A stretch of 64,000 nucleotides of DNA from Geosiphon pyriformis uo1 (lineage: Eukaryota > Fungi > Glomeromycota). The stretch covers positions 243,156 to 307,155 of the forward strand of contig JAAOMT010000375.1 of assembly GCA_016748015.1 (NCBI GenBank), given 5' to 3'. The translations under genes were made by a program, and so were the position numbers. The notes beneath the pieces are model-generated. The model did not search any database. It had not been told where the DNA came from and saw only the letters and a program-made list of their open reading frames with translations. Shown piece by piece: positions 6,861-37,100 of the stretch (position 1 is its first letter; every line of letters starts with the position of its first letter).

Positions 6861-9800
6861 GTGATAAACCTTTGTATTCTCCTAATGATAAATGCAAGTC
6901 TTGCCTAATCTATTACAAAGATTGGAAGCCTATTAGTTTAATATTCAGAGAAAAACTAAAAAAAGTACAGAAGTCTTTTAAGAATAAACCATCTGAAATC
7001 TAATTACTAGTTGTAGAACAAAGAAAATCTTTCCTTAAAGAAAGAAAAGTGGACATTGAATATCTGTTGGCTAGGAATAGCCCAGTTATCTCAAAAGAAG
7101 ATAATACCTCTAGATGAACCCATGTAATACAACACATCATTACCATAAAAGAAATTTGTTCTATCCATTTGAAGCCTTATCAATCTAATCAACACAATAA
7201 TGAGTTTATCAAGAAAGAAATAAACTGGATAAAAGATCTTGGATTCATACAAAAAACCAAAAATAAATGAGCTTTTCCAGTTGTAGTAATATTCAAAAAA
7301 GGTGGAACTCTATGCTTCTGTGTTAACTATTGTCAATTAAATGCCATCACTATAAGAGACATGTACTTACTCCTCAAAATTAATGCAATGCTAGATAAAT
7401 TCAATGGTGCTGCTTTCTTCTCAACCATTGACTTAACTGCTGAATTTTGGCAAGTAAAAATGGATCCAGAAAGCAGAAAAAAAACTGTTTTCATTACAAA
7501 GTATGGCACCTATGAATTCACAGTCATGCTTTTTGGTCTCACCAATGCCCTTCCCACTTTTCAATGCCTAATGGACAAAGTATTTGAATCAGTAAAAGAA
7601 AACTTTGTTCTGGTCTACTTAGATAACATAATGGTCTATTCAAAAACCTGAGATAAACATCTTGAACATTTACAGAAGGTTTTTGACCTGCTTAGAAATG
7701 CTAGTCTTAAGATCAACCCAATCAAATCTTTTTTTGGACACCAATCTACCCAATTCCTTAGTCATTTTATTACAAAAGATGGGAATCTTTCCTGACCCAG
7801 CTAAAGTTAAAAAAGTTCAAAACATTAGACAACCAATGAATGTTCCTGAACTATGTTCTTTCCTTGGTTTGGTCTTTTACTATTACAAATTTATTAAAGA
7901 TTTCTCCAAAATCGTCTTTTCTTTTGATTAGCTACTCAGAAAAAATGTTAATTATTACTGGGGCACTCATCAACAAAAAGCTTTTGAAATTCTGAAGGAA
8001 AAACTTGTTACTAAACCAATTCTCAAGCAATCTGATCTGAATTAACTTTTTATCTTCCATACTAATACATCTGACTATAGACTTGGTGCTGTCCTTTTAC
8101 AAAAAAATAAAAATGACAGAAAACATGCCATAATATATGCCAGTAAATTTCTCACACCAATAGAAAAGAACTATTTAGTTACTGAACAAGAATATTTAGT
8201 AGTAGTTTGGGCTACTAGTTACTGGGATCAATATCTTTTTGATACAAAATTCTTAGTGATAACAGATCATCAAGCTTTGGTTTGGCTGTACAATAAAAAG
8301 AAGCTGGAACACAAATGAATAACTTACTAGATACTCCACTTGGATGAATTTGACTATGATATTTAATACCACAAAAGAGCAAATCATCAAAATGTTGATG
8401 CTCTCTTTAGACTTATCATCCAGTAATAGTACAATCTCTTAAACCAAACCAACTTAATTATTAGTAACTCCTTCATAAACAAACATGATAATGGACTTGA
8501 ACAACTACTCTGCCTTAATAGAATTTTTGGGTAAAGAACAATACCCACCAGAATACACTTGACAGCAAAGAGAACATTTGCGCAAACAATCAAATTTCTA
8601 TTTGATCCACCAGAACCAATTATATAAAAGAAACAAAAAAGATTCTAATTGTCACCAAAAAGTTATTAGATTTGAAAAAAGAAAAATTGTAATATACAAC
8701 ATGTACATTAACTCATTAATTAGACACTTTTGAAAAACAAAAACAATTCAGAAAACTTTAACTTGTTATTATTGGTCTATCTTGAGAAAAGACATTGCTA
8801 AATACATCAAAACCTGTGACATCTGCCAAAAAAAAGGTAAACCCAATCACAAAGAAGATATCCATCCAATATTTGTTGGTCAACCATTTAACAGAATTGG
8901 TATAGATGTTGTTGGATCTTTAATAATAACTTCTGATGGCAACAAATACATTATCACAGCTACTAACTATCTTACAAAGTAGGTAGAAGCAAGAGCCACT
9001 CTAGACCAAACAGCAGTCTCAATAACCAATTTCATTTATGAAGATATTATTTGCCATTATGGCTGCTTTAAAAAACTCTTATCTGATAAAAGAAGAGCTT
9101 TTTTCAGTACACTGGTTAAAGAACTTTGTAGAAAAATAAGAATACATCATAAACTTTTCTCCCTTTATCACCCCCAAACAAATGGTCTAGTAGATCATTT
9201 TAATAGAACACTATGTGAAACCCTAGCCAAAACCAGTAAAGAAACAAACTTATAAGACAAAGTACTGCCTTCAGCTTTGTTTGCTTATAGAACTGTAAAT
9301 CATGATATAACAAGTTATGAATCTTTTTATCTGCTCTATAGATGCATAGCAATACTACCAATAGAAACTAATATTAAGACAATGCCCTTTGAAGAAATCA
9401 CAATAGAAAATTACAAAGATATTTTGCAAAAAAAACTTGGTACTATTTTTAACTCCTTAGTAGAAACACAAATAATTGCTTTTGAAAAGATAAAACAGTT
9501 CCAAGAAAAGCTTAAGAAAAAAAAAACTTATAAAACACTTTCTTTAAGTGTTGGTAACTTGGTACTAGAATACTGTTTAGACAGAGACAATGTCAATATG
9601 ATAAATTCTCTAACCGATGGAAAAGACTCTTTTTAGTCAACAAAGTTTTGAACAATGGTTCTTATATTTTTCAAGATCAATCCAAAACAATTTTCAATAA
9701 TTGTCTTGTTCATGGTACACGACTTAAAAAATATTATAAATGACCTGATTGGTTGCCTGTTGTAGTAATACTAATTCAAATAATCAACAAAAATTGAGTA

Positions 9801-10996
9801 TAAATAAATACACTATTTCCAAAACTGAGGTATTTTCAATCAACATAAACAATTATTTTCTGGATTAAAACATTTAAAACACTTTTTATACTCTTCATGA
9901 GTATTGAATCAAAAACTATCCAAATGCTACTCTGACTATTGGAAAACAAACCACCATAACTGATAACAATAGAACACATACTGTTATTAGACCAAAAAAA
10001 ACTACTATCAGAAAAGAAAAAATTGGTAGCAAAATGAATAAATATCTGTTGGAAAGTATAACAGCAGTTATACTTCTATCTTCTAGTACAATTGAAAAAA
10101 CACTCCAAGAAATTTTATCTATAGACAAAAACTTGTCATATAGAAGACAATTAGAGCTCTATGGTCGTCTTGGTGAAATTATAGAGGATATGAAACTCAT
10201 AAAGAAAACAACTTCAGAGATACAGACAGAAATTTTGGGCATTATATGGTTAGATGTTTCAAGAGTTTTAACTATTGCTAAAAAAGTCAAAACTCTAATA
10301 CAAAGATTTGGTCTCTTGGATACAAAACTTATTTTGCCTTAAGTGTTATATATCCTATCCACAAAAAACTTCAACAAACTAGTTAGCTTTGAGTTAGATA
10401 AAACCCTTCAAATAGATTACACTATAAATAGCTTGATTTTGCCAGAGCTCAATCTCTTTGGAAAAGATAATGTTATGATTAAAACTTATACTTCTTATTA
10501 ATTATCACATGTATTAACCACTGATGTCATATAAATTAGCCACTCTATTTTTAGAAAGTAATCATTGACTTGATTATTGACCACTTTTGATAACTATATA
10601 AGCAATGAATCTCTTAGTTGTAAAAAAGTATGTCAGAAATCAAAGAAAAAAAGAAATAAAATAACAATTTTCATTTTAATCATTCTCTTATTACTAATTT
10701 CTTTTTTCTTATCTTCAAGTATCCAAACATCTTAGAATAAAAAATTACTTGTTGGTTATTCTTTACACTTTTTCTGAAATGTGTAATTGCAGCATTTGAA
10801 GATTATTAAATAAAATGTGACTGAAGAGTACATCTGATACCTGATATTGAATTCTAAGAGCACCAATATGAGACATAGAATTATACCAGTATGTGATCAT
10901 TTGTTGACAGTACAGATTATTCTTTTACCTTCAGATTTCTGGTTATCTTTAGAAAAGTACAGCAACTAAGATATTTTATAAAACTGATCTTACACA
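6861..10996 (+). mobile_element. Degenerate Ty3/Gypsy element B (3' half: RT-RNase H, integrase, ORF3, PPT, 3' LTR ~10471-10996); interrupted by A, inserted in C
   Basis: RT FSTIDLTAEFWQV...YEFTVMLFGLTNA...VYLDNI; RNase H ends NVDALFRLIIQ* at 8426; integrase CDICQK...GIDVVG...SPYHPQTNGLV; GAGCTCAAT-purine tract then TGTTATG at 10471. The right LTR end is approximate. Confidence 0.85.
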
Positions 10997-12466
10997 TTGA
11001 ATCCATACTCATTCAATTGATTCTTTAAAGTTGAATTCCTTTTGATTTCTTTCATTATTCTACAATCTTGTTTTTCTTTGCTATCTGTTAGCTTGTTACT
11101 TTAATCTGTAACATTATATTTGATGATGCTTTTAGGTGTATAATAATATAATAAATTAGCAAATAAATCAACTTTTTGTTTCTTTCAAGTGGGTAATTGT
11201 ATTTGCTTTGAGATTCCTGCTGGTATTTGCAATCTTTCTTTTCCTTTGTCAGCAAAAGTGATAAAAAATCTTTGTTTAGTGTATTTTTCAATTTTTCTGT
11301 TTATTTTTGTGATTATTGATGCAAATAGATAATTCTGTGACAGTGTGATGTTTTGAAGTAATTCACCAAAAAAATTGTTAAAAGCAGATTCTGAATCTTC
11401 TTGGCCTTTCAAGTAATATATAATTTTTTTGTTGATATAGCAATTAAAAGCTAATTCTGCTGGCCAATTATTACTTGTCAGTTTAAGATTAAAGTAATAG
11501 TATTAAAATAAAAATTTTGCAAATCCCAAGTGATTGGTTTCTGTTACTTCTGATTCTGTTACTGTTATGGATGGTATTGTTAATGTTAGTTTTTTGTTGG
11601 ATTATATTTTACAGAGATTACCAAATATTACAGGTGATTATTTGGGGTCTCAAAACAAATAACAAATCTGTAACTTGGTGCTTAATAGTTGATGCAATTG
11701 ATATTATCTAAAAGTTTTGGTATTTGAAAGTTTTGGTGGAGTCTTTTATATAATGGACAAAAATTCAATGGTTGTTTTATCTGTAGCTTTCTGGAATTGC
11801 AATTCTGTCTAATTTTTTTTTTTAGTGTGGTGGCCAGTTTATTCTGGCAGTTGTGTTTTTTTAATAAGTTATTCTTAATTTCCAAGTTCTTTACCCTTGT
11901 TTTATAGTTCTTTTACCAGACTATTCTTGACATCAATAACTTAATACTTAATCTTTTTAATTAGTTAGTAAGTCAACACAACAAAAAAAAAAAAAACTAA
12001 AAAAAAAAAAAAAATAAGTCAATGCAAGTAAGTTAGTATTCTGTTAATAACCATGATCAAGAGCTATTGTTTTAGTGTGATTAAAAATTAGATCTTATTA
12101 ACATGTAATGTTAATAGTAGAAAGAGTAATTTAGATGGTAATAGTTATTTTATTAATATTAATAATTTTATTCTGGGAAATTTGTCTTTTTTACTTTTAA
12201 TGCTTTTGCTATATATATATAATTTGGGTATTATAAAATTGCTCACATTTCCAAGCAATGTGCTATAATTTTTTAAACAATATTCACATTGCTAAGCAAT
12301 GTGTTCTAATTTTCTAACATTGCTTTATATTGCTAAACAATGTGCCATAATTTTCTAACAATGCTTCACATTGCTAAGCAATGTACTTATGTGTTAACTA
12401 CTATTCTCCTATTGGTTTATCTGTTTTTTCTACTATTTTTCTTGTATACTTTTTTTATAAGTAATA
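10997..12466 (-). mobile_element. Element C remnant: 5' LTR 11626-12466, decayed PBS, start of ORF1
   Basis: LTR R/U5 homologous to A/E; ORF fragment FASIITKINRKIEKYTKQRF..DKGKERLQ matches A's FASIITEINKEIEHHTQQKY..SKGKGKLQ; right end abuts D's ORF3 mid-motif. Confidence 0.8.
12244..12385. repeat. ~41-bp tandem repeat (about 4 units) with near-palindromic core CACATTGCTAAGCAATGTG in the U3 of LTR C
   Basis: Cores visible at ~12244, 12285, 12326 and 12367. Confidence 0.85.
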
Positions 12467-15278
12467 CTGTGTATTTGTTATTTGTTCTATGTTGTTAACT
12501 ATAATAAACTTTAGTAAACTGCTTAATAATATTACTAGACAACATTTGAATACTGAATACAATTAGTATATTATCTTGTAGTATAGCATTAGATTATTTT
12601 TTCTAACAAATTTTTCTACTTGTTTTAGGATTTTTTTGTTAAATGTTCATTTATTGGTATCTAAATATGGTGTTTGTAGATCAAGTTTTTTACCAATTTT
12701 AAAAAACCAGTATATTAATAAAAGTTTTTTTTTCTATGTTTTGGAGGTTTCCAATGTCTATTTTTTTGTTACTGGTTTTAAGATTAATCTACTTAAAGTT
12801 TTCCTGATTTTATTAAGCTTTGCCTAACACATATTTTTTTTTTCTCTTAATTGTTTGTAGAAATAAAAATGATTAGTTCTAATTAAACTTTTGTTTACTT
12901 TTTTCTTGTGCAAATTTTTGTATTATATCTTTTTTTTATCAATTATAAATTTTATTTGTGTTGTAAATTGTTGAATTGATTCAAATAGTTATTTTGAAAG
13001 TCTTAAAATTTGATTTAAAAAATTTATGTTAAGAGTTTTATTATCTTCTTTCTGTTGTTTTAATCTTTATATATACTTAAATTTTTTCAATTTAAATTAT
13101 CATATGTTAACTACATTTTGATAATAATAATTGGTTTTAAATTTTGTGATATATCTTTTGGTCTGATTAATAAAATTTGTGTTTTTAGTTAAGGTATAAA
13201 TAATGATAATTTTTGGTTAATATAATAAATTTTCAGTTGATTTTTATGTACTACTTTCTTTAAAATTTTGTTCTTTAATTGTAATTTGTAAGCTCTATTG
13301 CTTAAAACTTTGTGTATGTGAAATGGTCCATTCCATTTTAGATTAAACTTTCCACTTTACTGTTTTTTAGTTTTAGTATAATATAATAATATTCTGTTTT
13401 CAATTTTGAATTCAACTAGTTGGTCAAATAAATAATTGTCATATTTTTTTTGTTGTTTCTAAGTGTTATTAATATTGTTAGCTGTTGTTTTATAATTGTT
13501 TTTTAATGTTTTATAAGCTGATATGTTTTTTAGTATAAGATAGCTTTAGAATTTTCTTTAATAATTGTTTTTGTTGAAAAAAAAAGTATTTTTTATTCAA
13601 TAAATAAAGTGGCTTTTCTTCTATAAACTAGTTTAAATAATATAAACTGAATAGTATTTTGCTTCAGTGTTTAGTATACAAATAATACAAAAAGTATAAA
13701 TAAATTATATTCTTGTGTATTTTTATAGCTTATTTTTGCTAATGCTTTACACAATGTTTGGTTAAATCTTTCTACCATTTTGTTTATTTGTGAGTAATAT
13801 AGTAAGAATAATAATCACTTTATTTCAAATTGTTGGTTTAGTTTAGCTAATATACTATTGACAAAATGAATTCTTTGGTTAGATAATAATTCTTTTAGGC
13901 ATTTATGTTGGCAAATCAAATCTTAATGCACAAATTTGGCTACTGTTTAATGTCAATTACTGGAATAGTTCTGACTTTAAGCTATTTAATAAAATAATTT
14001 ACAGTTACAATAATATAATAATTTTCTTTGAATGTAATTAAGAGAAAACCAACCAAATCAATTTTAATTTTATTAAATAAATTTTCAATTAAAATGAATT
14101 AAAGTGGTTTTATAGTTCTGGCTCTTTTTTTTTGTTGACATGAATTATAATTGATAATATACTCAAAAATATTTTTATATATTATTGATTAATAATATAG
14201 ATTTATTGTTTTTTTTAAAATAGTGTTTTTTTGAAGTGTCTTATAATTGGATCAAAGTACATATTATATAAAACAGTTTTTTTTTATTGTTTTTTATAAC
14301 ATGTTGTGAAGTAGTGCAGTTTTGGCATTCTTGATAGTATAGTTGGTTGTTCTGAATAAAGTAATTGCAAACTTGTTTTTATATAATACTTTGTTCTTAT
14401 TAAAATAATTTTTTTTTGAATTGCAGTGTTGATAAATATTAGTGTAATTACTGGTAGATAGTTGTATTCATAAGTTTGGGATTAGATTTGTATTATTCTC
14501 AACAAACTGTTAGCATTGATATTCTTGGCTTTTTTTTTATAATATACTTTATATGAGAACTATTGTAAATAAGTATTTTATTATACATATTTTTTTTCTA
14601 GTTATAACTTGTTGAGTAATTAAATGAGTTTTTTGTAATCTGTATATAAATTAAATAATTAGTAAAGGTAATGTTTCCAATTTTGTACTGCTTAGTAAAT
14701 AGTAAAATATTTCAAATTTGTCATATTGTATATTTTCTATAGGATGGCTTTTAGTGTATTTTTTAAAACATTTATAGCAATAATATAACATTTATTAAAG
14801 TCTGAATAAATCAATATTAGTGTTTTTATTAAGTATTGCTTAAGATAATCAAAAGTCTTTTATTGTTTTTTTTTATAGGTACAGAACATATTTTAATAAC
14901 AGATAATAGAATGGTTTTATAATATCTAAAAAACCTCTAACAAATTTATAATAATATTCAACCAATCTTAGAAATCTTTTTAGTTCTTATAAATTGGTTG
15001 GAATTGAAAAGTTCTTGACTTTTTTTATTTTGTTTGAATCTGGTTTTACTTTATTTTTTTCTATTATGTGTTCCAGAAATTTTAGTTCAATCTTTTCAAA
15101 AAAGTATTTATCTAAGTTAAGCTTTAATCTAACACTCTGTAGATAATTAAAACTTGTTGAAAGTGAAGCAAATAGTTATTGAATATTTTAGAAAATATAT
15201 TGGTATTGTTTAAGTATAATATAACTGATTTTTAGAGAATTTTTTTATACATAACATTTATAAGACATTGGAAGATAG

Positions 15279-16120: not shown

Positions 16121-16780
16121 TTAATATTGAGCTCCATTGAAATCTAACTCTGTTAATTCCCCTTCTTAAAGTATTTCCTGAATTTTATTTTCGAGAATTA
16201 CTTGTGTTATTTGAGTCTGTAATTCTTTAAATTGAGTGTTAGTGATCTTTCCTAATTGATTACTGGTAACCATGTCTATTGCTTTGTTAAGTAAAATTTC
16301 TGGTCAATCCTGAAATGCTGTGTGTATTTGGTATATGGCTCAGGCCTGTGTGAATAAGTTGTTTTTTCTTACAAAATGTTCTAATTGTTGTAGTATTCTG
16401 GTGTCAAATAATCACTTTGTTTTATCCATATATAGATTTTGGATATTCATGTATTGTCCCAAGTAAAAATAACAATAGTTTCTTGGAAATTGTTGTATCC
16501 ACCAATTCCAAGTTTCTTTAGTCAACTCTTAGTATAGTGACTCTTTTGTCGACTCTTTTATTGCTAATTTTACTTTCGCCATGATTTTGTCAATGGTATT
16601 TTCTGTTTTCTTTTGTGTTCTATGTGGCGATGTCTTTCTAGTGTCTTGATATCAGATGGTTTGTTGATTAATTGTAATTTCCATCTCTTGGTGTTAAATC
16701 AATTAAAAGAGTTGTTGTGCTAGTGAGTAGATGTTGTCTGTAATTTCCATTTTTCTGATATTTTTTGTCACATCTACCAT
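16121..16780 (-). pseudogene. Element E ORF3, ~219 aa, unknown function
   Basis: Hand translation in one frame from ATG 16780 to TAA 16121: MVDVTKNIRKMEITDNIYSLAQQLF...WNWWIQQFPRNYCYFYLGQY...HFVRKNNLFTQA*AIYQIHTAF...VTSNQLGKITNTQFKELQ...ELDFNGAQY*; internal stops all reachable by C>T/G>A. Confidence 0.8.
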
Positions 16781-16804: not shown

Positions 16805-18186
16805 TTAATTAATGTGTTGTTGTCAATAATAATAATTGGTTCCAGATCTCATGGAATCTCTTCTGGTTGGACTAGTATCTTCTGTACTCCTAATTGTGGA
16901 ATATTACTGATGGATAGTGGTATGATGTTGTGGTATGGTTTCAGTCGATCTCCATGTGCTGCTTTGGTTAAAATTTTGTTATTCAGTCTTAATTTGTAAG
17001 CTCTATTCCCTAGAATTTCTTCTATGTGAAATGGTTCATCTCATTTGGAGTCGAATTTTCCACTCCATTGTTTTTTCACTTTGATACAATGTAAGAGTAC
17101 TTTGTCTCCAATCTTGAATTCAACTGGTTTGTCTGGTAGTTAATTATCATGTCTTTCTTTCTGTTTCTCTTGTAACTTTTGTATATTATTAGCTGCTTTT
17201 TTTTGTTTGTTTTCCAATGTTTTTATTAAGTCATATGTTCTTCTTAACAATGTCTCTTGGAAATTTTCTTTTGTTATTGATTCAGTTAAATATATGTTAA
17301 CTTCTATCTCAACTGATAATGTTGATGTTCTACCGTATATCAATTTAAATAGTGTTGCTTGTATGGTGTCTTGCTTCATTGTCCGATAAGCAAATAATAT
17401 TGATGGTATAAACAAATCCCATTTGTCCTGGTTTTTTTGGCTGAGTTTTGCTATTGCTTCACACAATATTCTATTAAATCTTTCAACTAATCCATTGGTT
17501 TGTGGATGGTATGGTGATAATAGTAATCTCTTAATTCTGAATCTTTGGCTTAGTTTTGCTAATGTTCTATTCACAAAATGAGTTCCTTGGTCTGATAATA
17601 ATTCTTTTGAACATTCATGTTGACAAATCAGATCTTGATGGACGAATTCAGCAATGGATTCTGCATCTGTTCTTTGAATTGCTTTGGCTTCTGGCCATTT
17701 AGTAAAATAGTTTATGGCTATTGCAATATATCTGTTGCCTCTGCTGGTAATTGTCAATGGTCCGACTAAATTAATTCCAATGTAGTCAAATAGTTGTCCC
17801 ACTTTGATTGGTCTTAATAGTTTGCTGGGTCTTGTTCCTCCTCTTCTTTGACAAGCATCACAATTTTGCACATATTAAATGATGTCTGGATACATCAATA
17901 GTTAATAGTATCTCTTTCTGGTTCTTTCTATGGTTGTTTTTTTATGAAAATGTCTTGCAGTTGAATCTGAGTGCATGTTGAACAGTATTGTCTTTTTTTC
18001 TGGTTCTGTAATTACTCTGGTTGGTTGATCTAAATCTTTTCTATTTTTCTGATAAAGTATATTTTGGTAAGTGATAAAATATTTGGATTGTTGTTTGATC
18101 TTCTTTTGTTCTGGTTGAGATAATTTTTTTTTGAACTGTTGAGTATCTATATAATGTTGAAGTTGTTGATATTTTTGTGTGTTCAT
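16805..18186 (-). pseudogene. Element E integrase (stand-alone ORF2)
   Basis: MNTQKYQQLQHYI start; H-H-C-C finger (MHSDSTARHF...CDACQ), core GINLVG...SDQGTHF...PQTNGLVERFN; no chromodomain visible. Confidence 0.9.
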
Positions 18187-18247
18187 CTTTTGTTATATTT
18201 TCGTGAGTATTGTTTTGGTTTTGTTATATTTTTGGATTAAAATGTTC

Positions 18248-21200
18248 TTAGATTTGTCTCATTTGCGACAAACTGTCAACATTTCCGTTGGCTTTTCCCT
18301 TTTTATAATGTATGGTATAAGTATATGGTACAAGTGCCATTTTCTATCTTGACTGTCTTCCATCTCCAAATTCTTGTTTTTGGAGTGATGTTAATTCTTT
18401 GTGATCTGTGTACACCTCAAACTTTTGGCTCAAGTATTTTTTCCATTTCATAACTGCCCAATAGATTGCTAGATGTTCTAATTCTGATGTTCCATAGTTC
18501 TTTTCGGCTGAAGTCAAACCTTGGCTGGTATATGCAACTGGATGTTCTCTTTCATCCAATTCTCTCTGAGATAGTACTGCTCTCAATGCTTGACCTAATG
18601 CATTGGTAGTAATGATGAATAGTTTACTATAATCTGGATATATTAGTACTGGAGCTTGAATGAGCTTTCTTCTTAGAGTGTCAAAAGCTTTTTGTTGAGT
18701 TTTGGTCCATTCATATTTCACATTCTTGGTTTGGAGATGATTGAGTGGCTGAGCTATCTTTGAAAAGTTCTTAATAAAGCGTCAATAATAGCTAGCAAAT
18801 TCCAAGAATAATTTCAGCTCAGTTATGTTAGTTGGTATTGGAAAGTTCTTTACTATTTTTATTTTCTCTGAATCTGTTTTTATGCCATCTTTACTAACTA
18901 TGTGTTCCAAGAATTTTAGTTCTGTTTTGCCGAAAAAACACTTTGTTGCATTTAATTTTAATTCTGCTCATCATAGTCTTTCGAACACTTGTTGGAGATA
19001 ATATAGATGATCATCGAATGTTTTTAAGAACACATTGATGTCATCCAAGTATACAACTACTGATTTCCACAATAAGCCAGTGTACACAATTTCCATTAGC
19101 CGTTGGAATGTAGCTGAAGCATTGGTTAAGCCGAATGGCATAACTTCAAACTCAAAGTTTCTCTTTCTTGTGGTGAATGCCGTTTTTTCTTTGTCAGCTG
19201 AATCCATGGCTACTTGCCAGTAACCACTATCTAAGTCTAATGTTGAAAACCATTTGTTTTCACCAAAAGCGTCGAATAGTTTTTGTATTTATGGAGTTGG
19301 ATAGCTGTCTCTATAAGTTACACCATTGAGTTTCTTGTAGTTTATACAAAATTAGATTTTTCCATTCTTCTTATGGATGAGTACTACTGGTAATGACTAT
19401 GGGCTTATTGATAGCTGAATTAACCCATTGTTAAGCATTTGGTTGATCTTTTGATGAATGATTTCATGGCTGGCTGGTGGTACCCTGTATGCTCACTGTT
19501 TGATTGGTATTACATCTCCAGTCTTGATCTGATGCTGGATAATATCAGTTCTGCCAAATTCGTTTTCACTGGCAAAGATGTCATTGAAATTATTGAGTAA
19601 CATCTTTAGTTGTATCTGTTGAAGTGTGTCTAGATTTTCTATGTTTATTCATTCCAATTGTTCTGGCTGTAACAGATAACATTTGTTTTATCTGTAAATG
19701 GTTTATAATGTAATGTCCACATATTCACAAAGCTGTAGAAAATCTGAAATGCTGCTTGATGCTTGATCTTTAATTTCTGTGGTTAAATATTCGAGAGTAG
19801 TTCCTTCTGGTATCTCTACAACATTTCTGGTGTTGTTGTAGATGGAAATTTTGATATGATTATGGCTCTTGGCTGGTATGTGTAGATTGATAAGTCCAAT
19901 TTCTCCTGATTCACAAAGGGTCACTTCCGCTTCAAAAATCTGTTCTTGCTCCTTCTCTCTTCTTTCTATTATTAACATGTATCAGCTATATGGTGGAATA
20001 GAAATTGTTTAACCAGTTGAAATAATTTCTCCTTGGCCAATAATTTTTTCCTTTACTATATTGACTGGTATATTTATTCTACCTGTGGATTCAAATCCTT
20101 GTATCCCTCTTGCTGTTATTCCTAATTCTTTTTTGTTTCCCACTAACACTAATTGAACTACTTTAACCAAAGGCAGGAATATTGCCTGTGCTATTTTTTT
20201 ATTTGGCTCTATAATATAGGTCTTTTCTGAGTCATTTTGTAGCATGGCAATAATATTTCCTACATATCCTGTGTCAATTATTCCTTCTCTTATATTTATT
20301 CCTCTTTTTGCTAGACTACTTCTAGATGCTAATTGAATTATTGTTGTTGTTGGAATTTCTAAGACTATTTTGAGATTTATGCAAGTGTGTGAATGTGGTT
20401 CCAATTTGATGGCATCTTTTTCTGGATACCTTAGATCAAACCCAACATCGGTATCATGCATGCATTCTGGCATAATATCTTCATTATTATCGCTAAACCA
20501 TTTAAGTTTCTGTTCTTTGGTGAGGTCAGGAAGTACAATATATTTTTCATAGTTTGGATCGGGGTTTAAATCTGAGTTGGAATCGTTGTCATTGTTCTCG
20601 CCATATTGGATGGAATTGAAACTGGTGTTTTTGTCATCATTGTTGTCAGAGTTTGAATTGAGATTAAAAATTGATTCTGATTCTGATGCACAGCTGCTAA
20701 TTGGTTCTTCTTCCTCTGGGATTGTGTAGATCATGCATAGTGGCGGATTGTAAATGAAGTCACACTCATTACAATATTGGAAGTCACATGGAATCAAACA
20801 ATGGTCACATAGTCGAGTGTTTATTTCTTTTAAGCATTGCTTTTGCTCTTCTCTCGTGGATGCTAAATTCTAATAGTGTTCATGGAATTCTTCTGGGCTG
20901 TTTTCTAAGTCAATAAAGGCATCCAAGTTGAGAACAAAAACAATGTCTGTTGGTTCTGGAGGGTTATTTTTGATCTCTAGAATTTCACTGAATAAAGCAC
21001 CTTCTACTTTGGCATTGGTCATTCGCCAGATCTTGTTCTTGTCATGTAGATAACCGTCTAGACAGGATATAGCTCGGTGCCATGCTGCTGTAATGGGTGT
21101 ACCACAACTCATCCAATTGTTAATAAGGATCATGTATTGGCACAAAGCATTGCACATTCCTCCTCGACCAAGAATGTCATTCCACATTCCTTCATTGAGT

Positions 21201-25418: not shown

Positions 25419-26502
25419 ATAGCTAAGACATTGTAAAGTTCAAAGAGCATTACATTAAATTTGAAATTTCTGTTTTGCATGGTAAATGCTATTTTTTTTT
25501 TGTTTTTGGGATCTATTTCGATTTGTTAATATCTACTGATTAAGTTTAAGAAAAAGAATTATTTTTTATTTCTTAAGTTATCTAAAATTTTCTAAATAAG
25601 AGAGATTAGGTAGCTATCTTTTTAAATAATGCTGTTAAGTTTTCAATAGTCTACACAAAACTGTATTTTTCTATTTTTTTTAGTGACCAATACTATTGAG
25701 GAAAACTAAAAGCTTAATAATTTTTTGATTAATCTGTTATTTAACATTGTTACAGTTCAAGAATTTAATAAAAATTATAAATAATATAAATTAGCCAATC
25801 ATAAAATAGCACAGTGTTATGGTTTAAGAATTTAGCAAAAAGAATCATAAAAATAATACAAACTATTCAATCATAATATAGCACAGTAATAATCTTAAAA
25901 AGGTAATGATTAACATAGTAGCAAACACCATCTCGCGATAGTGGCAAGCACCAGTTCACAATAGCAGCAAACACCAGGTTGAAATATTAAAAAGAAAGTA
26001 TTACAATGTGTTTTCTCATAGAACTACAAACATGTATATATACAGTAGTTTTAATATTGGGAAATAATCAATCAAGTAATAAAAATCATAACTTATCAAG
26101 CAATAGNNNNNNNNNNNNNNNNNNNNNNNNNNNNNNNNNNNNNNNNNNNNNNNNNNNNNNNNNNNNNNNNNNNNNNNNNNATAGCCTCAGAGAAGACCCC
26201 AAACAGTGGGTAGATTTCAGTTCAGCCTTTGAAAAGGAGTACATAAACACACACAACAATTAAGAATTAAAGAATAACTTACATCGCAACAGTAAAAAAA
26301 AGCCTTCAGTGTAACAGTGACATTATCACACAAATAGAATTGAGGAACTCACAAAAGACTGATTGCAATTAAAACGGGATATCAGCAATTAAATATAACA
26401 AGAAAACCATTCCATAACATTTGGTGAACCCTATGAAAAAAGAAAATCAAAAAAGAAAATAATAATTAGCAATAATTCATTGCTAAAAAGGAAAAGACAA
26501 AA

Positions 26503-29500
26503 GTGGTAACAAAAACCCCTAATCTTACTGTTCTTGAATTCTGCCATGCTATTTACACACAAAATCAAAGTGATCTTGGATTAACAGAAGGGTGTTGTCC
26601 AGCAGAATCTGTCCTCACTTATTATATCAATGCCAGAATAAATTATCATATAGAAAAGGAAGAAGAACCACACGACGCAAAACTTGGATTGTATAGAGAA
26701 TTATCACAATACACTACAAAAAAAGTAGCAGTAATAGCCACAACTATTGTCAAAATCCATTGAGAAATTGAGCAATACACCAACAAAAATTTTCCAATAT
26801 CCACAGGAAACACTAGGAAACATGCCAACAAAACCAAAGAAAATTTAGAAACTAATCAGAAAAGTAACCAGCAAAAACTAGGAACACCAGCTCAAACGCC
26901 AAAGAAAACTGTCACTCAATCAATAAAAAAACAACGTATTTATTCACCAGAAGATAAATCATACCATTTTTCACCAGAAAATAAGATACAAATTCTATTA
27001 GGAGCTGCATCATTATCAACATCAACTCCACAAATGCCAAGAACTCCTAGTTATACTGATAAAATTAAACAACGTAACTGGGGAGACATACCAATTACAG
27101 AAGGATATTCATCATTATTCCAAAACCCTCTTTTTCAGCCAAAATTTAGAACGGGTTTAAAAACCGTGAAGAGGAGTCTGAATTGGAATCCAAAAAAGAG
27201 ACCAGCAAAAAAACAATCACAAGACCAGTTACTGGAACAAGCAGCCAGTTCAAAAACCAAGAAACTTGTGATCAAGAGGAAGAACTGGATATAAAAGAAG
27301 CCACCTTTAGAAACGCTCAAGGAAATATTATCTCACCTCCTCTTAGACCAATAAACTCACCAGCAGAAAATGGCAACAAAATGACCACACCATACATTGC
27401 AAGACTAACAGATTTCTTAGAAGAGGAAGAAGAAACGGACATGCACACATGGCTCAGAGAAACACAAAAAGCCATCCAGGCAAATAACTGGAACGACCAA
27501 AGAGCAATTCAAATATTACCTTTCTTCCTGAAAGGCACAGCCAACTCGTGATATCAAAGCCTGGAAACAAAACCCACGAGCTTTGCCGAATTTAAAAATG
27601 CACTTCTGAAATATTTTAGCGACCCAAACGCCGTAATCCAACTACAGAATGAATTCAATACTATCAAGCAAAATACTGGTAAAACTGTCACCCAATACCT
27701 TGCTCGATTCAATCGAATTCGCCGTTAGATTGAAGTGATTGAACAAGAATACTATACTGATTCTTAGGTTTTAAATCAGTTTATTAGAGAATTAAAAAGC
27801 AGCATTTTAGGAAGAGTACGCCCTGCCCACCCTAATTCCTTACCAGAAGCCGTTACGCTCACCAGAGTCCTTGAATCGGCTAAGAAAGAAGCTAATCATA
27901 GTCAAATGGTTAACATGGTAATGGAAAAAAATAAGACAGAAACATTAAAAAAAAGAGTAACACAATTAGGAGAGGAACTCTCTAAGAAAATAAAAAGTTA
28001 CCTCATCCCAGATCTGAGAAAAAATACATACCAACCACTCCAAAGACGCAGCCAGGAAGTCAGTAACAGTCGAAATAATTGCTCGTTGTGTCAGAAATTC
28101 AGAACAGAAACGCGTGCCTGCCATTTTTGCAAATGTGTAGGACATTTGATTAGTCAATGTCGAATGCAAATGATGCAAAAAGCATGCAAAAATAATTACT
28201 ACGCGCCACTCCAAATGCCCAGAAACCAGTACATGCCAATACCATGCCAATATCCCACCATATATCAAAATCAAGGAGCTTATCAGCAACAGTCCATGAT
28301 AGCCAACCCAAATTGGCATCCCGAGGCCTGAAATCAGTCCATGTAGAACCAGAATGTGTTGGTCCAGAGGAATTCAAACTGCACTGGAACCAATCAGCAA
28401 ACCAATCCAAACTACCAAAATTATCAACAAACTTACCTTAATATACCAGAAAACCTGATTATCGGAAACAATAATGGTAAAAACATAAACAGAACCAAGA
28501 ATTCCTCCAAATTGAGCCAGACAATACCATTAGCAATTGCCACCAAAGATAGCAGCCTTACAGCTATTTTTCCTTTTGAATTAGAGGAAAACGAGGCTAT
28601 GTTCAGTAGAGCAGCATTGGACAAAAAATGCCCAATCACTGCTATATATACAGAAGCCACTGTAAACAATACCCCAATTAAACTTATCTTAGACAGCGGA
28701 TCCGCTAGAAGCATTGTAACACTTCAACTAGTAAACCAACTGGGTTTCAAAGTTGATTGTGCCACAACGTCCCAAATCATAACAGCCGATGGAAGTACAA
28801 AGCTGCCTCATGGCAAAATCGACTCATTTCCTTTCAAAATTAATGACATAGTAATACTTACAAAAGTATTAGTAATGAACGCTACACAATATCAAGTGTT
28901 AGTAGGGAATAACTGGCTAACAAAAGCCAATGCCACTCTAGACTGGACCACCCAAGAGCTTCTGATCAATTATAATGGCCACCAGGCCAAAATTCCAGCC
29001 ACTTGTGGCCACTTCCAAAAACTCAGCACCAACCAAAGACCTACCTTCGAATTTGAGGAAAATCCAGCACTACCAGCCATCAAAATCTATTAGCTCTCTT
29101 GGGCTGATGACCAAAGAACAGGACTACCAGCCATACCAATGTGGACCAGCAAAGAAAGATCCGAATGGAACCAGGTAAGTTCACAAAGAAACCACCAGTG
29201 ACGCAAACCAAAGCTAGAATGCTCAGTTTGCAAAAAGAAACTCTCGTCTATGACTGCGTGCAGCACACCAGATGAAGACCCAAGAAACCCCACCCACTAC
29301 TATTGTAACCGTTGTAACAAAAAAAAATACAGTTACCCAGAAAGACACAGAAAATGAGACGAGGAACCGTGCCTTGCTTGTGGAGAACCATTACCAAGAG
29401 GGTGCGACTGGAATGACATACCAGACAGAGAAAGAACGTGTGATACAACTTGCCAATACATGATCCTTATCTGTGACTGAGTAAGAGGAGGAACGCCGTT

Positions 29501-32209
29501 CGAAGCAGCGTTCAACAGAGCATTAAAAAGACTACAGCACTACCCACACGACAAAGACGAACTGTACAATACCGCACAAGCCAAAGTAAGAGGAGGAACC
29601 ACCGAAGAAATACGACGTTGGAAAGAGTCAGCCGAAGTAGCCAATGAAGTCACCAGCTACAACATGTTTGACCCAGTGGACGAATTCCAGGACTACTACC
29701 AACAACTATGTCCCACTCGACAAGAGCAAGAACAATACTTCGCCCAAATCAACACTTACCTTTGCGAAAACTGTCTCATCCTGTGCCAAAATTAGTGCTG
29801 TGAAGAGTATCAAGACGAAAGAGACTTAGAAAAAAAAATGGAAATTGAGAATCAGCAGTCTTAAAATCAATCAATAAATCAATAAGACTCACTTGACAGT
29901 CCCGAGTCAGAAAAATTTGTAGCCTATACCAACCTAGAACAGGTGACCGACATCCAATACTTTGACAACGGGCACTTAAGAATAATACCCGAAAGAGCCT
30001 ATCCAACCAACGCCAGATTCGATCTACATTATCCGAAAGACCAATCCACAACGTTACCACCCAGGAGCATCACCAAAATTGACCTAAAAATAGTGGTTAA
30101 AATTTTGTCAGGAATAATGGTTCAAATGGCGTCATGATCAAGCCTTGCAAAAAAAGGAATAAGCATTTAAGAAGGAGTAATTGACTCTGAATACACTGGA
30201 AATTTAATGGTTTTGCTACAGAACAATTCAGAAAAGCCTTATACCATTGAATCTAAGAAAAAGATTGCACAAGCAATTTTCCTACCATTGGTAAAAATTG
30301 GGAAATTTGTGCCAGTGAAAAATCGTGAGAAATTGTCACAAACAATGAGAGGAACTTTTGGTTTCAGATCGACAGAAAAATGAATTGAAGTGAATTTCAC
30401 TAAAACAATAAAGGAAAAAGGTGAAGTAATTAAAAATGAGTGGTTCATCACACTCCTACCATATGGAAAATCAGAAATAAGAATAAAAAGAACAATTAAA
30501 GAAAAAGACCTAATATTTGAGCCCTATCCAGAAACTTGCCAACAGTTTCTCATAGGACTTACTAACCTTTTTATTCCAGCTAATAAAGCTCAATGGATAA
30601 AAATTTCTATCGCAAACACCACAGAAGAACCTGTCTACATTCTGGAAGATACATTATTGGATACCTCAGAACGGAGCTAGAAAACGTGTCAACACCACAA
30701 GAAATTCTAAATTTCCCAGAAATCGCCCTCTACTGTGAACTCACTTCAATAAATTGGCAACAACTGTTAGAATGCTATCAATTTACACCAGAAGAATTGG
30801 CCAAATTAAACATTGGAACAATGGATCCTGACCAACAGTGACAATTAAAAGCATTAATTTTAAAATACTCTGATATATTTTCAAGAAATGGCAAATTTGG
30901 AAGAACCAACTTGGTTCAACACCAAATCTCCACTGGAGATGCCAGATCTGAAAAACAATGCACTTACCGTGTCCCACCAATGGAGCATAATTTTATCAGA
31001 GAAGAAGTCCAAAACATGTTGGAAAAAGGAATAATACAACTATCAATGAGCCCATGGTCCTCACCAGTTGTTTTAGTAAAGAAAAAGAACGGAAAAATTA
31101 GATTTTGCGTCAACTATTGCAAACTAAACAGCAAAACAACCAAAGACTCATACCCAATACTGTTAATTGACGAAATTTTCGATGTTTTTGGAGGAGCAAA
31201 ATGGTTTTCTACACTGGACTTAACCAATGAGTACTGGCAAGTGGAAATGGACCCAAAGGACAGGCATAAAACAGCATTCACAACACAAAATAGCAATTTT
31301 GAATTCAATATAATGTCATTTGGATTAACAAACACTCCCGCGACATTCCAAAGACTAATGGATGTAATTTACTCTGGAATTCTGTGACAATCCATTGTTG
31401 TCTACTTGGATGATACAAATGTTTTCTCATCAAAATTCACGGATTATCTCCAACATTTACAACAAGTTTTTGAGAGATTGAAACACGCTGGACTTAAACT
31501 AAATCTAGAAAAATGTTTCTTTGAGAAATATGAACTAGCATTTTTAGAACATGTAGTTAGAAAAGATGGAATAAAACCAGATCCATCAAAAATAGACAAA
31601 GTGAAAAATTTTCCAGTACCTCGAAACATTTCAGAAGTTAGAAGCTTTTTAAGACTCGCATCTTACTACCACTGCTTTGTAGAAAACTTTTCAAACATTG
31701 CCAAACCCCTTAGTTACCTACTATCTAAAAATGTGAAGTTTGAATGGACTGAAGCACAACAAAAAGCTTTTGAATACCTTAGACAAAAGCTCATTGAATC
31801 ACCAATAATGATCTATCCAAATTTCAACAAGAAATTCATTTTGGCCACAGATGCCTCTGAAACTGGACTTGGAGCCATTCTGTCACAAAAAAATGATAAT
31901 GGAAGAGAATATGTAATCGCTTATGCCAGCAGAAGTCTCAGTATGGCAGAACAAAACTATGCAGCACATGAACTTGAATGCTTAGCAGTAGTCTGGAGTT
32001 GTGTTTATTTTGACACATATTTTTGGTACCAATCCTTTGAGATTACGACAGATCATAGAGGTCTGGTCTGGTTAAATAACAAGAAAGCACTAAAAAAAAA
32101 ATACGCCAAATGGTCACAAATGTTAACACCATACGATTATATTATCAAATACAAAGAAGGTACCAAAAATGCTAATGCCAACTGTTTGTCAAGAATGAGA
32201 CACACATAA
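26503..32209 (+). pseudogene. Element G ORF1 polyprotein (extension-Gag with CCHC knuckle-protease-Cys domain-dUTPase-RT-RNase H)
   Basis: CHFCKCVGHLISQC knuckle, LILDSGS protease, PERAYPTNARFDL / IAQAIF dUTPase, VVYLDDT RT, TDASETGLGAIL / ELECLAV / TTDH RNase H; ends NANCLSRMRHT*. Confidence 0.93.
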
Positions 32210-32238
32210 AAATCACCAACCCACCCGCCACAACAACA

Positions 32239-33618
32239 ATGAACAACCACCTTTACAAAAATCTCAGCCAATACTTGGAAACACTACAAATAGATGAAGA
32301 AATGCCAGTAAAAGAGCTAATTAAGCTCCAAAAATTAGCAAAACACTATTTCATTCAAAATCACATACTTTATTACCAGAATTGACAAAATCCAGATAAT
32401 CCATTAAGAGTTATAACCACAGATGAAAAAGAAACTATCTTATTTAACATGCACTCAGATATTCATTCAGGCCACTTTGGAAAAACAGCAACCATCCAAT
32501 GTGCAACTAGCCATTACTATTGGCCAAAAATAAGTTCAGACATAATCCAATACATAAAAAATTGTGACCCATGCCAACAAAGAGGAGGAGCAAAAACAAC
32601 GGAATTATTAAGACCAATAAAAGTTGGACAGCCATTTGACAGAATCGGAATTGATTTAGTTGGACCCTTACCAATAACAACAAGAAACAACCATTATATT
32701 GCAGTAGCCATGGACTATCTTACCAAATGGCCAGAAGCTAGAGCTATTAAAACAGCTGATGCTATTTCCGTAGCTCAATTCGTACATAAAGACTTAATTT
32801 GCCAACATAAATATCCACAAGAATTGCTATCAGATCAAGGCACACACTTCGTAAACAGCACCTTAAAAGAACTTAGCCAAAAATTTGGAATCAAGCAACT
32901 ACTGTCATCATCATACCACCCTCAAACAAATAGATTAGTTAAAAGATTTAATCACACATTATGCAAATCACTGGCGAAAATTAGTAATGAACATGAAAAA
33001 GAATGGGATTTGTTCATACCAGCAGTACTACTAGCATATAGAACAATAAAACAAGATACTACACAATTTACACTGTTTGAACTAGTTTATGGAAGAAAAG
33101 CCACATTACCAGTTAAACTTACTATTCCAACTTATCCAAATGACACTATCACAGAAGCAACATTCCAGGAAACACTACTTAGAAGAACATACGAATTAAT
33201 GGGAACTTTAGAAAACAAAAAAAGAAAAGCAGCACAAAATATTAAACAATCACAAGAACAACAAAAAGTGAGACATGATAACCAGTTATCAGATAATATA
33301 ATTAGCTACAAAATTGGAGATAAAATATTGTTGCATTGTACAAAAATGGAAAAACAGTGGAGTGGAAAATTTGATCACAAGTGGGATGGATCATTTTATA
33401 TTCACGAAATACTTGGAAATGGAGCATACAAGCTAAGACTAGATGATAAAATATTAAGAAAAGCAGCACATGGTAACCGGCTAAAATTCTATTACAGTAA
33501 ACCAGTAATAACAACAAAAACACCCAGAATTGGAACACAATTACCTTTAATTCTACCAGAACAAATTCCACGAGATTTAGAACCAATAGTTTTAATTGAA
33601 CATTATTCGAAAAGATAA
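32239..33618 (+). pseudogene. Element G integrase (stand-alone ORF2, one internal stop at ~32383)
   Basis: ATG 32239 MNNHLYKNLSQYL in frame with the 389-aa ORF; HSDIHSGH..CDPCQ, GIDLVGP, SDQG, KWDGSF (GPF/Y-like). Confidence 0.92.
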
Positions 33619-33660
33619 TTAATCTTAGATCACAGCAAAAATGATTTAACAACCATAAAA

Positions 33661-34106
33661 ATGCATGCAAAAGATTCCAAAATAGCAGTCAAAATTAAAA
33701 CAATGATACTTATTCCAGAAAACATCAACAATATAACTCAACAATNNNNNNNNNNNNNNNNNNNNNNNNNNNNNNNNNNNNNNNNNNNNNNNNNNNNNNN
33801 NNNNNNNNNNNNNNNNNNNNNNNNNNNNNNNNNNNNNNNNNNNNNNNNNNNNNNNNNNNNNNNNNNNNNNNNNNNNNNNNNNNNNNNNNNNNNNNNNNNN
33901 NNNNNNNNNNNNNNNNNNNNNNNNNNNNNNNNNNNNNNNNNNNNNNNNNNACCATGAACATAATAACAACCAACAGTATTGGACGACTTACCAACTCGCA
34001 ATTTTAAGAATTACAACAACAAATTAATAACACAGTATTGAACCACTATAGTAACTTAGAATTTAATGAAGAAATTAACTTCGATTTCAACAGAGCTCAA
34101 TCTTGA
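33661..34106 (+). pseudogene. Element G ORF3 (middle lost in N gap)
   Basis: N-terminal MILIPENINNITQQ and C-terminal IITTNSIGRLTNSQF*ELQQQI...FDFNRAQS* align to E ORF3. Confidence 0.7.
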
Positions 34107-37100
34107 AAGGAGGGGATAATGTTATGGTTTAAGAATTTAGCAAAAAGAATTATAAAAATAATACAAACTATTCAATCATAATATAGCACAGTAATAATCT
34201 TAGAAATATAATGATTAACATAGTAGCAAACACCATCTTGCAATAGTGGCAAGCACCAGTTTACAATAGCAGCCAACACCAACTGGTAATAGCAGCAAAC
34301 ACCAGGTTGAAATATTAAAAAGAAAGTATTACAATGTGTTTTCTTGTAGAACTACAAACATGTATATATACAGTAGTTTTAATATTGGGAAATAATCAAT
34401 CAAGTAATAAAAATCATAACTTATCAAGCAATAGATCCAATTTTATCCAACAAACTCTACTTTAAAATCATACTTTCAAATTAAATATCCCAAAAAACCT
34501 TTAAAATCAAAAAGAAATGAAAAAGAATATTTAAAACTGAACTATCACAACCCAAAGTATTAAGAAACTTACTTGTATTATTTATTGAATGAAACTATCA
34601 TTCATCAACTGAATTCTTTGGAAGAATAATCCTTGATCAAGATTATTCACATTGTTACTAATTGATAAAAGCTTTATTGTAAGAATTAGAAAAGCACTAA
34701 AGACCATTAACATTCTGTGTTTCTAGATTAGAAAAACACATCAGGCAATTACAAGGATAGCCTCAGAGAAGATCCCAAACAGTGGGTAGATTTCAGTTCA
34801 GCCTTTGAAAAGGAGTACATAAACACACACAACAATCAAGAATTGAAGAATAACTTACATCACAACAGTAAAAAAAAAGCCTTTAGTGTAACAGTAACAT
34901 TATCACACAAATAGAATTGAGAAACTCATGAAAGACTGATTGCAATTAAAATGGGATATCAGCAATTAAATATAACAAGAAAACCATCCCATAACAACAG
35001 CAACAATTTATAAAAAAAAATGATTTACAAATAACAGCAAGCACTATTTTACAATAGCAGCAAGCACTATTATGCAATAGCAGCAAGCATTATTTAGAAA
35101 TAATGGAAATAGAGTATTACAAGACATTATTTTGTAAAACAATAATTATATATATATACAATAGTTTTTAATAATAAAAAAAAACAGCTTCAACTTGAAG
35201 CAACAAATATCTAAATAAAATCTTATTCAAAAAGAATTAATAAAAAAATAATAAATTGAATAAACATTACAATTACAAGATTAACAATAGAATTTACATA
35301 CCCTCTTTAGTGAATGAAACTATTATTCCATCTTTAAACCCTTTAGAAGAATAATCTCTGATCAAGATTATTCACATGGTTACTAATTAAATTGAAAAAG
35401 CTTTATTATATACTTAAGAAAATTGCAAAAAGGCCATTAACATTCTGTGTTTCTAGATTAGAGAAACACATTAGACAATTGTAAGGAAAGCCTTAGAGAA
35501 GACCCCAAACAGTGGGTAGATTTCAAATTAGCCTCTGGAAAGAAGTACACAACATATAAAGACAACTAGAATTAAAAAGAAGATTTACATCACAATATCA
35601 AGAGAAAATCTTCAGTAGATTATTATTAATATTTAACACATAAAAATTGAGGAACTCACAAGAGACTAATTGCAATTAAAATAGGAGATCAACAATTAAA
35701 ATATACCAAGAAAACACTCCTATAACAACATCTATTGTACTTTCTGTTTAATCAGATTGTTATCTGCTGAAGTTACTCAATAAGTCTATTGTTTAATAGA
35801 TTTGGTATCTTCCATGTTGATTTAACGTTTTATAATATCAGTGCATCCAAATTCGTTTTTATTGACAAAAATATTAGCATATTGGTTTAAGAGAACTTTA
35901 AATTACATTTGTTGTAAAGTACTTAAGTTTTTCTGGTATAATTTAGTAATTTTTTTTGGTGTAAACAGGTAGTTTTCTTTTAGCAAGCTCTATATTTATA
36001 AGATAATATCACAAAATAAAAACAATTGTGCAAAGTTTAGAATAAGCTGGAGTTTTTTAAGATTTTGAATGTTTGGAAAAATAAAACCAACAAAAATCTT
36101 TTTGGAAATCTTAATAATTTTTTCAATAAGATTGTAGATAAGAATTTTAAAGTGTTTATAAGTTTTGACAAATATATATAGATTAATAACATTAGCTAGA
36201 GAACAAATTTCTAGATTAGCTTTGAATAATAAAGCTTGATTCTAAATTTTTTGATCTACTTTTAAAATATACTGTTAATATAAAAGAATAGAAATGATTA
36301 TATCAATATAGATAAGTTCTATCTTATCACTATTAGTTTCTACAAAATTAACTGGTATATTTTTTTTTTTACTTAATCTAAACTTTTTAATTTCTTGAGC
36401 AGTAAAGCTTAATTTTTTACATGTAATAATTGAGGTTAATTGTGGTATTTTTATAAAAGGCAAAAAAATAGCTTGGACAATTTTTCTTGTAATTTAATTA
36501 TATAAGATTTATTAAAATTGTTTTATAATATTATAATAATATTTTCATATATTTTGCATTAATAATTCCTTTTTTTACATCAATTTTTTTTTTTGCAAAA
36601 CTAGACTAGAATGCAATTTGGACTTTAGTGCTAACAGAAATTTTTAAAGCTATTTTGAGATTTATTTTTACAAAAAAATAGAGTGCTATAACTATAGAAG
36701 ATTGTTTAGAGTATTTTAAATTAAATTCAGCATTATTTTTATGTGCTTTTTTAGAACATATTTTTTTATTGTCATTACTATACTATTTTAATTCCAATTT
36801 CTTAAAGAGATCAGAATAGATAAGATATTGTTTTATTTTGGTAGCTTTACTTGGTTTTTAAAATAACATGTTTTTAGCTATGAGCTCATATTTTTCTTTG
36901 TATTTTAGTAGTTTAAGAATAGGATATATTGTTTTTAAGAGTGGATTAAACAAGAGATTACATTTATCACAATACTAAAAATGACAAGAAATCAAGTAAT
37001 AATCACACAATTTTGTATTAAAGTCCACTAATTTCTGTTTTTGTTTTTTTTAGATAAAAACAAGTTTTTAATATTGGTCTTAAAATGCCTTAAAATTATT

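Follow-up and report, generated by a model that had tools for sequence, protein, structure and literature searches.

How does a long terminal repeat (LTR) retrotransposon express its integrase (IN) when Pol ends in front of it? The question is raised by a 64,000-nucleotide stretch of DNA from the fungus Geosiphon pyriformis uo1 (GenBank assembly GCA_016748015.1, contig JAAOMT010000375.1, positions 243,156 to 307,155; hereafter the window), in which five Ty3/Gypsy elements, named B, D, E, G and H, end Pol shortly after RNase H (RH) and begin integrase anew. Ty3/Gypsy elements and retroviruses load integrase into the particle by releasing it from Gag-Pol. The original prediction held that integrase is a separate gene here, and all five junctions it listed were recovered in the window sequence (Table 1). 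Each Pol stop lies four codons after the RNase H end motif, in line with the claim of a stop shortly past it; the spacers between stop and start are A/C-rich as described (159 A+C and 6 G in 205 nt over the five) and contain no ATG. In element B a second in-frame ATG, at 8491, yields the family-typical MD... start. Elements D, E, G and H share 63-70% DNA identity with one another, and B cannot be aligned with them. Because element G holds so few internal stops (2 in 540 reverse transcriptase (RT)-RNase H codons and 1 in 459 integrase codons), five stops at one codon are not what random decay would leave, and the argument made against decay stood.

Relatives were collected from 9 of the 64 parts of a metagenome set, which gave 332 confirmed loci, and the best 80 were taken. 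In seven of the 80 (31-35% identity) the Pol-integrase frame is continuous, L070 is canonical but frameshifted within integrase, 16 lack a usable integrase start and 56 carry the conserved ATG. The Pol stop was scorable in 33 of these 56 loci, and Pol and integrase are split in all 33. Both genes are unbroken in seven loci (Pol of at least 430 aa, integrase of at least 390 aa), two of which, L005 and L038, are complete elements flanked by terminal repeats. The 33 loci and four window elements make up the 37 junctions analysed below; element H, with ATA in the start position, was excluded from ATG statistics and L010, a frameshifted near-copy of L013, from the counts, while the near-duplicates L009, L063 and L079 were left out where stated, and L049 also in the TATA, splice and folding tests. 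Spacers range from -11 to 727 nt (that of L039 is 76 nt, the computed 562 being an artefact of a broken Pol), with 8, 13 and 16 junctions in the three frames. The claim that no spacer is a multiple of three thus holds in the window (lengths modulo 3 of 1, 1, 1, 2 and 2) but fails in general, as 8/37 junctions are in frame.

Protein searches gave the same picture from both sides of the junction. The 120 proteins closest to element G integrase are 373-464 aa long, and 95 of them start M-[DENS]-x2-3-[YFL]. Since this search could not return long fusions, longer proteins were searched too: among 100 matches, genuine fusions reach at most 38% identity over half of the query or more. The three closest long matches are Cetraspora and Rhizophagus gene models in which the end motif of RNase H or the start of integrase is missing, and two further ones are chimeric Geosiphon gene models. 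Conversely, integrase is missing from 46 of the 47 best RT-RNase H relatives: 35 stop at most 13 residues from the RNase H motif, eight continue into an integrase-less tail of 79-303 aa, three have no motif match, and a plant element alone is fused. Named hosts of such integrase-less Pol proteins include Rhizophagus irregularis and R. clarus, and a Gag-Pol of Rhizopus delemar ends three residues past the motif with the same tail as the split locus L072. The first methionine of integrase lies about five residues ahead of a helix that shares homology with the YPYY region in fused integrases (E 8e-9 for L064), which places stop, spacer and ATG where fused relatives have their protease-cleaved linker. 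No continuous RNase H-integrase frame occurs in the core lineage, and an intron fusing the two frames finds no backing either: there is no splice-acceptor signal, and the three "fused" Glomeromycota gene models look like predicted-intron bridges. Unbroken split relatives, stand-alone integrases with a conserved methionine and Pols ending at RNase H therefore bear out the separate gene. As judged from these comparisons, the split is inherited and not a product of decay, and a large group of soil-fungal Ty3/Gypsy elements carries integrase as its own gene behind pol. A search of viral contigs revealed no relative of the integrase.

In the RT-RNase H tree (96 rows, FastTree), a 48-row branch (support 99) holds 21 of the 22 rows split at the DNA level together with two fused rows; in the integrase tree (95 rows), every one of the 55 split rows falls in a 60-row branch (97), along with five fused rows, of which four are plant-like. 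With the two regions joined (45 rows), the best tree (p-AU 0.86) has a core clade made up of 19 split elements, the window copies among them. When the 23 split rows were grouped to the exclusion of the four near fused ones, p-AU was 0.024 and p-SH 0.12, values that come from fast searches whose free tree was not the best one; a single origin of every split row is doubtful. The comparison of RT and integrase phylogenies proposed with the prediction placed elements G and E with L001 in both, and there is thus no sign of integrase capture from outside. A fused, GC-rich single-ORF (open reading frame) element, L060:1174-6438, adjoins the split lineage in all trees and is a candidate sister or re-fusion.

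The original prediction left reinitiation, internal entry and a spliced or subgenomic RNA open as routes to integrase; the comparative data favour the first and lend splicing no support. Integrase is probably translated by termination-reinitiation from full-length RNA. With the layout LTR-gag-pol(PR-[dUTPase]-RT-RH)-IN-ORF-X-LTR, where PR is protease, one full-length RNA would serve both Pol and integrase: ribosomes would end on Pol, or on a filler ORF within the spacer, and restart at the integrase AUG, either on an overlapping stop-start or, as in the window, after scanning a short, unstructured, AUG-free spacer. Exact overlaps of -1, -4, -8 or -11 (UAAUG, AUGA, AUGnnUAA) are present in 13 of 34 non-hairpin loci (the hairpin is described below), and in 27/34 the integrase AUG lies within 100 nt of an upstream stop. 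UAAUG and AUGA are overlaps named for termination-reinitiation in the accessible part of PMC10275272; SART1 uses UAAUG and LINE-1 has a 63-nt spacer (PMC5972666, in part), a case that the window spacers of 10-61 nt resemble by analogy. AUGs are depleted in spacers of 3-100 nt (3 versus 10.3 in shuffles, P 0.004). Among eight long-spacer families, three have an ORF of 44-85 aa ending on the integrase AUG (expected 0.16; 0/3000 shuffles), and the same relay onto the integrase AUG is found in loci without visible Pol (L024, L049, L054 and L068). Neither a subgenomic nor a spliced RNA accounts for overlaps and relay ORFs that end on the integrase AUG.

Several points weigh against reinitiation. 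Long spacers are not AUG-poor (36 AUGs versus 41 shuffled), the pooled AUG test gives P 0.10, and the 100-nt length cut, the relay thresholds and the TATA window were all chosen post hoc. Five of the eight long-spacer families have no filler ORF (L004, L020, L038, L065 and L072; 163-727 nt), and the window's own junctions have no stop-start overlap. A UGGGA motif upstream of the stop is a signature of the calicivirus-type TURBS (short for termination upstream ribosome-binding site); it was found at 1/34 junctions, with 1-6 of 33-34 in controls, and the sequence ahead of the Pol stop gave no folding signal (mean z -0.08 to +0.55). According to the available text of PMC10275272, viral reinitiation behind long ORFs usually requires an upstream element. 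The hairpin 4 nt ahead of the AUG in some loci would hinder plain scanning, and an AUG-poor A/C-rich stretch also suits a short 5' untranslated region. The case for reinitiation is drawn from sequence signatures.

We consider it unlikely that integrase has a subgenomic mRNA of its own, started from an internal promoter that lacks a TATA box and lies in RNase H or in the spacer. AUG scarcity does extend about 60-100 nt upstream of the integrase AUG, long spacers without a filler ORF need some such route, and TATA-like words lie 121 nt (E) and 70 nt (D) upstream. ORF-X, a further gene that these elements carry, is in many cases preceded by a TATA box at 39-60 nt (7/14 versus 0.9 expected), which indicates that the lineage uses internal promoters. 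However, the same test that is positive for ORF-X found no TATA excess for integrase (5/52 versus 3.0 expected, P 0.18), and a promoter would leave the upstream ORFs that end exactly on the integrase AUG unexplained.

Internal ribosome entry through the A/C-rich spacer or a hairpin, independent of Pol translation, is improbable. In one subclade, 14 loci share a 35-37-nt motif, composed of GUGAAAGC-n-nAAG, a hairpin with a CAnnGUGA loop and a basal helix closing it, that ends 4 nt before the integrase AUG in 8/14. The hairpin covaries strongly: over 13 aligned copies 96% of cells are paired and 6 of 12 pairs are changed on both sides (0/500 shuffles), figures that relatedness inflates. Loci with it never use overlaps, having 62-190 nt instead. 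Its model matches 16/80 loci, 13 of them from the training set and mostly on one branch of the integrase tree; it is thus absent from 64/80 loci, and from the window, where the best match reaches 16 bits in the wrong place. Overlaps require no entry site, and at only about 40 nt the hairpin is far below the size of known internal ribosome entry sites. Comparison of 15 loci with Rfam gave no match covering the motif at E of at most 5, and the viral contigs searched gave no hairpin match. The hairpin is a candidate for initiation control or a protein-binding site, and under reinitiation it would act on initiation or as an integrase/Gag binding site. Pol of the hairpin clade extends beyond RNase H by 285-315 aa (L013:3494-4438, L007:2417-3271); this tail is acidic, contains Cys/His and has no Pfam match.

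That a leader or Pol is spliced to an acceptor shortly before integrase is highly improbable. Foamy-virus Pol and env genes are expressed via spliced RNA, and three Glomeromycota gene models connect Pol or Gag to integrase; but those models cut RNase H ahead of its last catalytic motif and their joints differ. Nor is there an acceptor signal: YAG occurs in 33/45 loci versus 36 shuffled, and a branch point with YAG in 6 versus 9.9. No YAG lies between the last upstream AUG and the integrase AUG in 13/51 loci, including elements G and E.

That Pol and integrase are joined by frameshifting or readthrough, or that the stops arose by decay of a Pol that was once continuous, is hardly credible. The window copies are indeed decayed (CpG observed/expected 0.33), the integrase frame of element G has no stop over 31 nt spanning the end of Pol, and a shift would be possible at 12/37 junctions and a single readthrough at 3/37. 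However, a further integrase-frame stop closes 22/37 junctions and all three frames occur, a slippery heptamer is found at only 3 of the 12 shift-permitting junctions, unbroken elements are split as well, and a conserved first methionine would be needless. Recoding can thus be regarded as excluded as a general route.

If integrase is made by reinitiation, its output would be low relative to Pol. Foamy-virus Pol, hepadnavirus P and caulimovirus Pol are made apart from Gag and packaged via RNA or Gag binding; unlike here, Pol as a whole is separate in them, the integrase of foamy virus still being cleaved from it and hepadnaviruses and caulimoviruses lacking integrase. By analogy with foamy-virus Pol, hepadnavirus P and LINE-1, free integrase may attach in cis, while it is being made, to its own RNA or to Gag and in this way enter the replication complex. 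Other Ty1 copies can complement a mutant Ty1 integrase, but there the enzyme still derives from Gag-Pol (PMC7459421, in part). SART1 and LINE-1 (both non-LTR), the hypovirus CHV1, the victorivirus HvV190S and caliciviruses are alike in their UAAUG or AUGA overlaps or, for LINE-1, the spacer; none of these reinitiation systems is an LTR element or involves integrase, and unlike in them the coupling distance here varies widely inside one lineage.

As to class, element G has LTRs with TG...CA ends and a 4-bp target-site duplication, within the 4-6 bp of Ty3/Gypsy; it and the complete relatives L005 and L038 have the order gag, PR, RT, RH, IN. The RT, RNase H and integrase are of Ty3/Gypsy type (Pfam PF00078, PF17917/17919, PF17921, PF00665), with fused Gypsy polyproteins as neighbours in trees whose rows held no Copia/BEL outgroup, and the best solved-structure match of integrase is that of Ty3 Gag-Pol (PDB, E 8e-52). 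Integrase does not lie inside Pol for release by protease, however, and because it is not encoded there we file the elements as a Ty3/Gypsy variant, not a typical member. They are not chromoviruses, as the PF00385 chromodomain is absent from element G integrase and from the 120 closest integrases. In Gmr1-like elements integrase lies upstream of RT; here it is downstream of RNase H. Troyka, which has CG...CG ends and a 3-bp duplication (PMC12440569, in part), is ruled out by the ends and 4-bp duplication of element G, and Ginger1 by an integrase behind RT-RH and between LTRs. Yeast Ty3 and Dictyostelium DGLT-A share with these elements TG...CA LTRs, target-site duplication, primer-binding site, polypurine tract and gene order. 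In Ty3/Gypsy, integrase is cut out of Pol (accessible parts of PMC5911963 and PMC3248453), whereas here Pol ends at RNase H, integrase has its own AUG and ORF-X follows. The nearest fused relatives in the integrase and joined trees are plant non-chromovirus (Athila/Tat-like) and other YPYY Gypsy integrases (L064, P0162, P0195), which we take to be Athila/Tat from the plant names of their sources and the look of their sequences; in them the RH-linker-IN frame is continuous where the present elements are split. In its available part, PMC2836005 counts Athila/Tat and Gypsy-1-I_RO among YPYY integrases and describes Ginger1 as a Gypsy-type free-standing integrase with YPYY, H2C2, DDE and GPY/F. 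By that description, Ginger1 is alike in its stand-alone integrase with these four parts and unlike in having terminal inverted repeats, no RT and OTU/Ulp1 tails. No published account of integrase as an ORF apart from Pol in Ty3/Gypsy elements was found; the search did not extend to Repbase, GyDB, subscription journals or supplements, which may hold one (Gypsy-1-I_RO in particular). The accessible portions of PMC10508981, 10.64898/2026.05.21.726589, PMC5911963, PMC11952901, 10.1101/2021.03.30.436303, PMC3248453 and PMC2699053 report none.

ORF-X is conserved, about 145 aa long and downstream of integrase, and its 3' end overlaps the polypurine tract (e.g. L014:1596-2039). It forms 515 clusters at 50% identity and is present in Rhizophagus and Gigaspora gene models; traces in elements G and B are faint. 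The predicted model is all-helical (pLDDT 92.5), with no match in Pfam and no Foldseek match in PDB or viral models; the best VIA-align Z is 4.8 and Atlas matches stay under 0.9, an absence of match that does not amount to a new fold. In L012 the ORF-X TATA box is built from the integrase stop codon. A role as reinitiation activator or integrase partner has no support. Passenger genes also occur: in L024:3-1237 two AUGA overlaps link a kinase-like ORF with one for an Mrr-type nuclease (PF13156, E 5e-9) and the latter with integrase, and a P-loop kinase-like domain between RNase H and integrase, with weak thymidylate/deoxynucleoside kinase matches, is fused to Pol in P0236 and P0265. The Gag-Pol joint is a short overlap with a TTTAAAC/TTTAAAA slippery-type word in L005:3132-3147 and L027:2898-2919, a single in-frame stop in L038 (3360) and one ORF in L013.

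Element G is a complete but decayed LTR element (Table 1). ACAG target-site duplications flank its LTRs, and a TGG primer-binding site lies 2 nt downstream of the 5' LTR. Window 27396-27542, in its gag region, matches the gag of locus L023, and a Pfam search of the gag piece found no match. Its integrase comprises an N-terminal YPYY-type helix, H2C2, the DDE core and an SH3/GPY-F-type tail; the G. pyriformis gene model P0213 has the same first methionine, 85/88 identical residues and an 87-95% match to the element G LTR. The C-terminal residues of the ORF-X remnant are similar to ORF-X of L001 and L017. A dUTPase between protease and RT is found in five window elements, at 61116-61310 (+) and at 1749-1552, 20287-20084 and 36487-36365 (-) besides that of element G. 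CpG observed/expected is 0.33 over the whole window with TpG in excess, as expected under methylation-driven decay, and a degenerate, T-rich tandem repeat of 15-36-nt units occupies 45349-45659.

Table 1. Junctions and features of the window elements (window positions), and the hairpin motif of related loci (locus positions)
Feature	Position	Strand	Details
Element B junction	8424..8493	+	TAA 8424-8426, 58-nt spacer, ATG 8485
Element D junction	14469..14484	-	TAA 14484-14482, 10-nt spacer, ATG 14471
Element E junction	18184..18250	-	TAA 18250-18248, 61-nt spacer, ATG 18186
Element G junction	TAA 32207-32209, ATG 32239	+	29-nt spacer
Element H junction	63159..63211	+	TAG 63159-63161, 47-nt spacer, ATA 63209 at start position
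Element G 5' LTR	25815..26419	+	TG...CA ends, 8-bp terminal inverted repeat, N gap 26107-26180
Element G gag region	26476..28331	+	stop-broken; CCHC zinc knuckle within 27768-28331
Element G aspartic protease	28347..29093	+	PF13975, E 8e-11
Element G dUTPase fragment	30171..30383	+	between protease and RT; PF00692, E 8e-12
Element G RT-RNase H	30587..32209	+	PF00078, PF17917, PF17919
Element G spacer	32210..32238	+	29 nt, A/C-rich, intercistronic, no AUG, no AG
Element G integrase, own ORF	32239..33618	+	PF17921, PF00665; internal stop 32383-32385
Element G ORF-X remnant	33660..34119	+	runs into polypurine tract; N gap 33746-33950; weak, hidden Markov model score 3.8
Element G 3' LTR	34120..34996	+	followed by ACAG
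Element E ORF-X, decayed	16196..16750	-	tblastn with L001 ORF-X: 28% over 199 aa, E 9e-9
Element D ORF-X, decayed	12464..12715	-	tblastn E 0.001
ORF-X, further trace	about 9990-10470	+	
Hairpin motif	L007:3299-3334, L013:4465-4499, L014:296-330, 13 other loci		directly before integrase AUG

New here are the covarying hairpin before the integrase AUG in one subclade and a downstream ORF-X of unmatched fold, often with its own TATA box. It is possible, and we put it forward tentatively, that these elements form an undescribed, Mucoromycota-wide LTR lineage that works as a eukaryotic operon, in which Pol, passengers and integrase would be chained by stop-start coupling, integrase would be recruited without Gag-Pol, the new structured RNA of one subclade would serve as initiation control or integrase-capture site, and a free-standing YPYY integrase within an LTR element would be the missing intermediate towards Ginger1 DNA transposons. 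To our knowledge, reinitiation after long ORFs is known from few viruses and two non-LTR elements; with its dozens of natural sequences between cistrons (overlap, A/C spacer, hairpin and relay ORF), the lineage lends itself to studying it in fungi. The split also explains many "stand-alone integrase" genes and false introns in the annotation of arbuscular mycorrhizal genomes; the genome of the species concerned is reported, in the available part of PMC11952901, as 41.2% LTR sequence. A widespread, apparently functional lineage without the Gag-Pol link implies another route of integrase recruitment and a natural, tunable Pol:integrase ratio.

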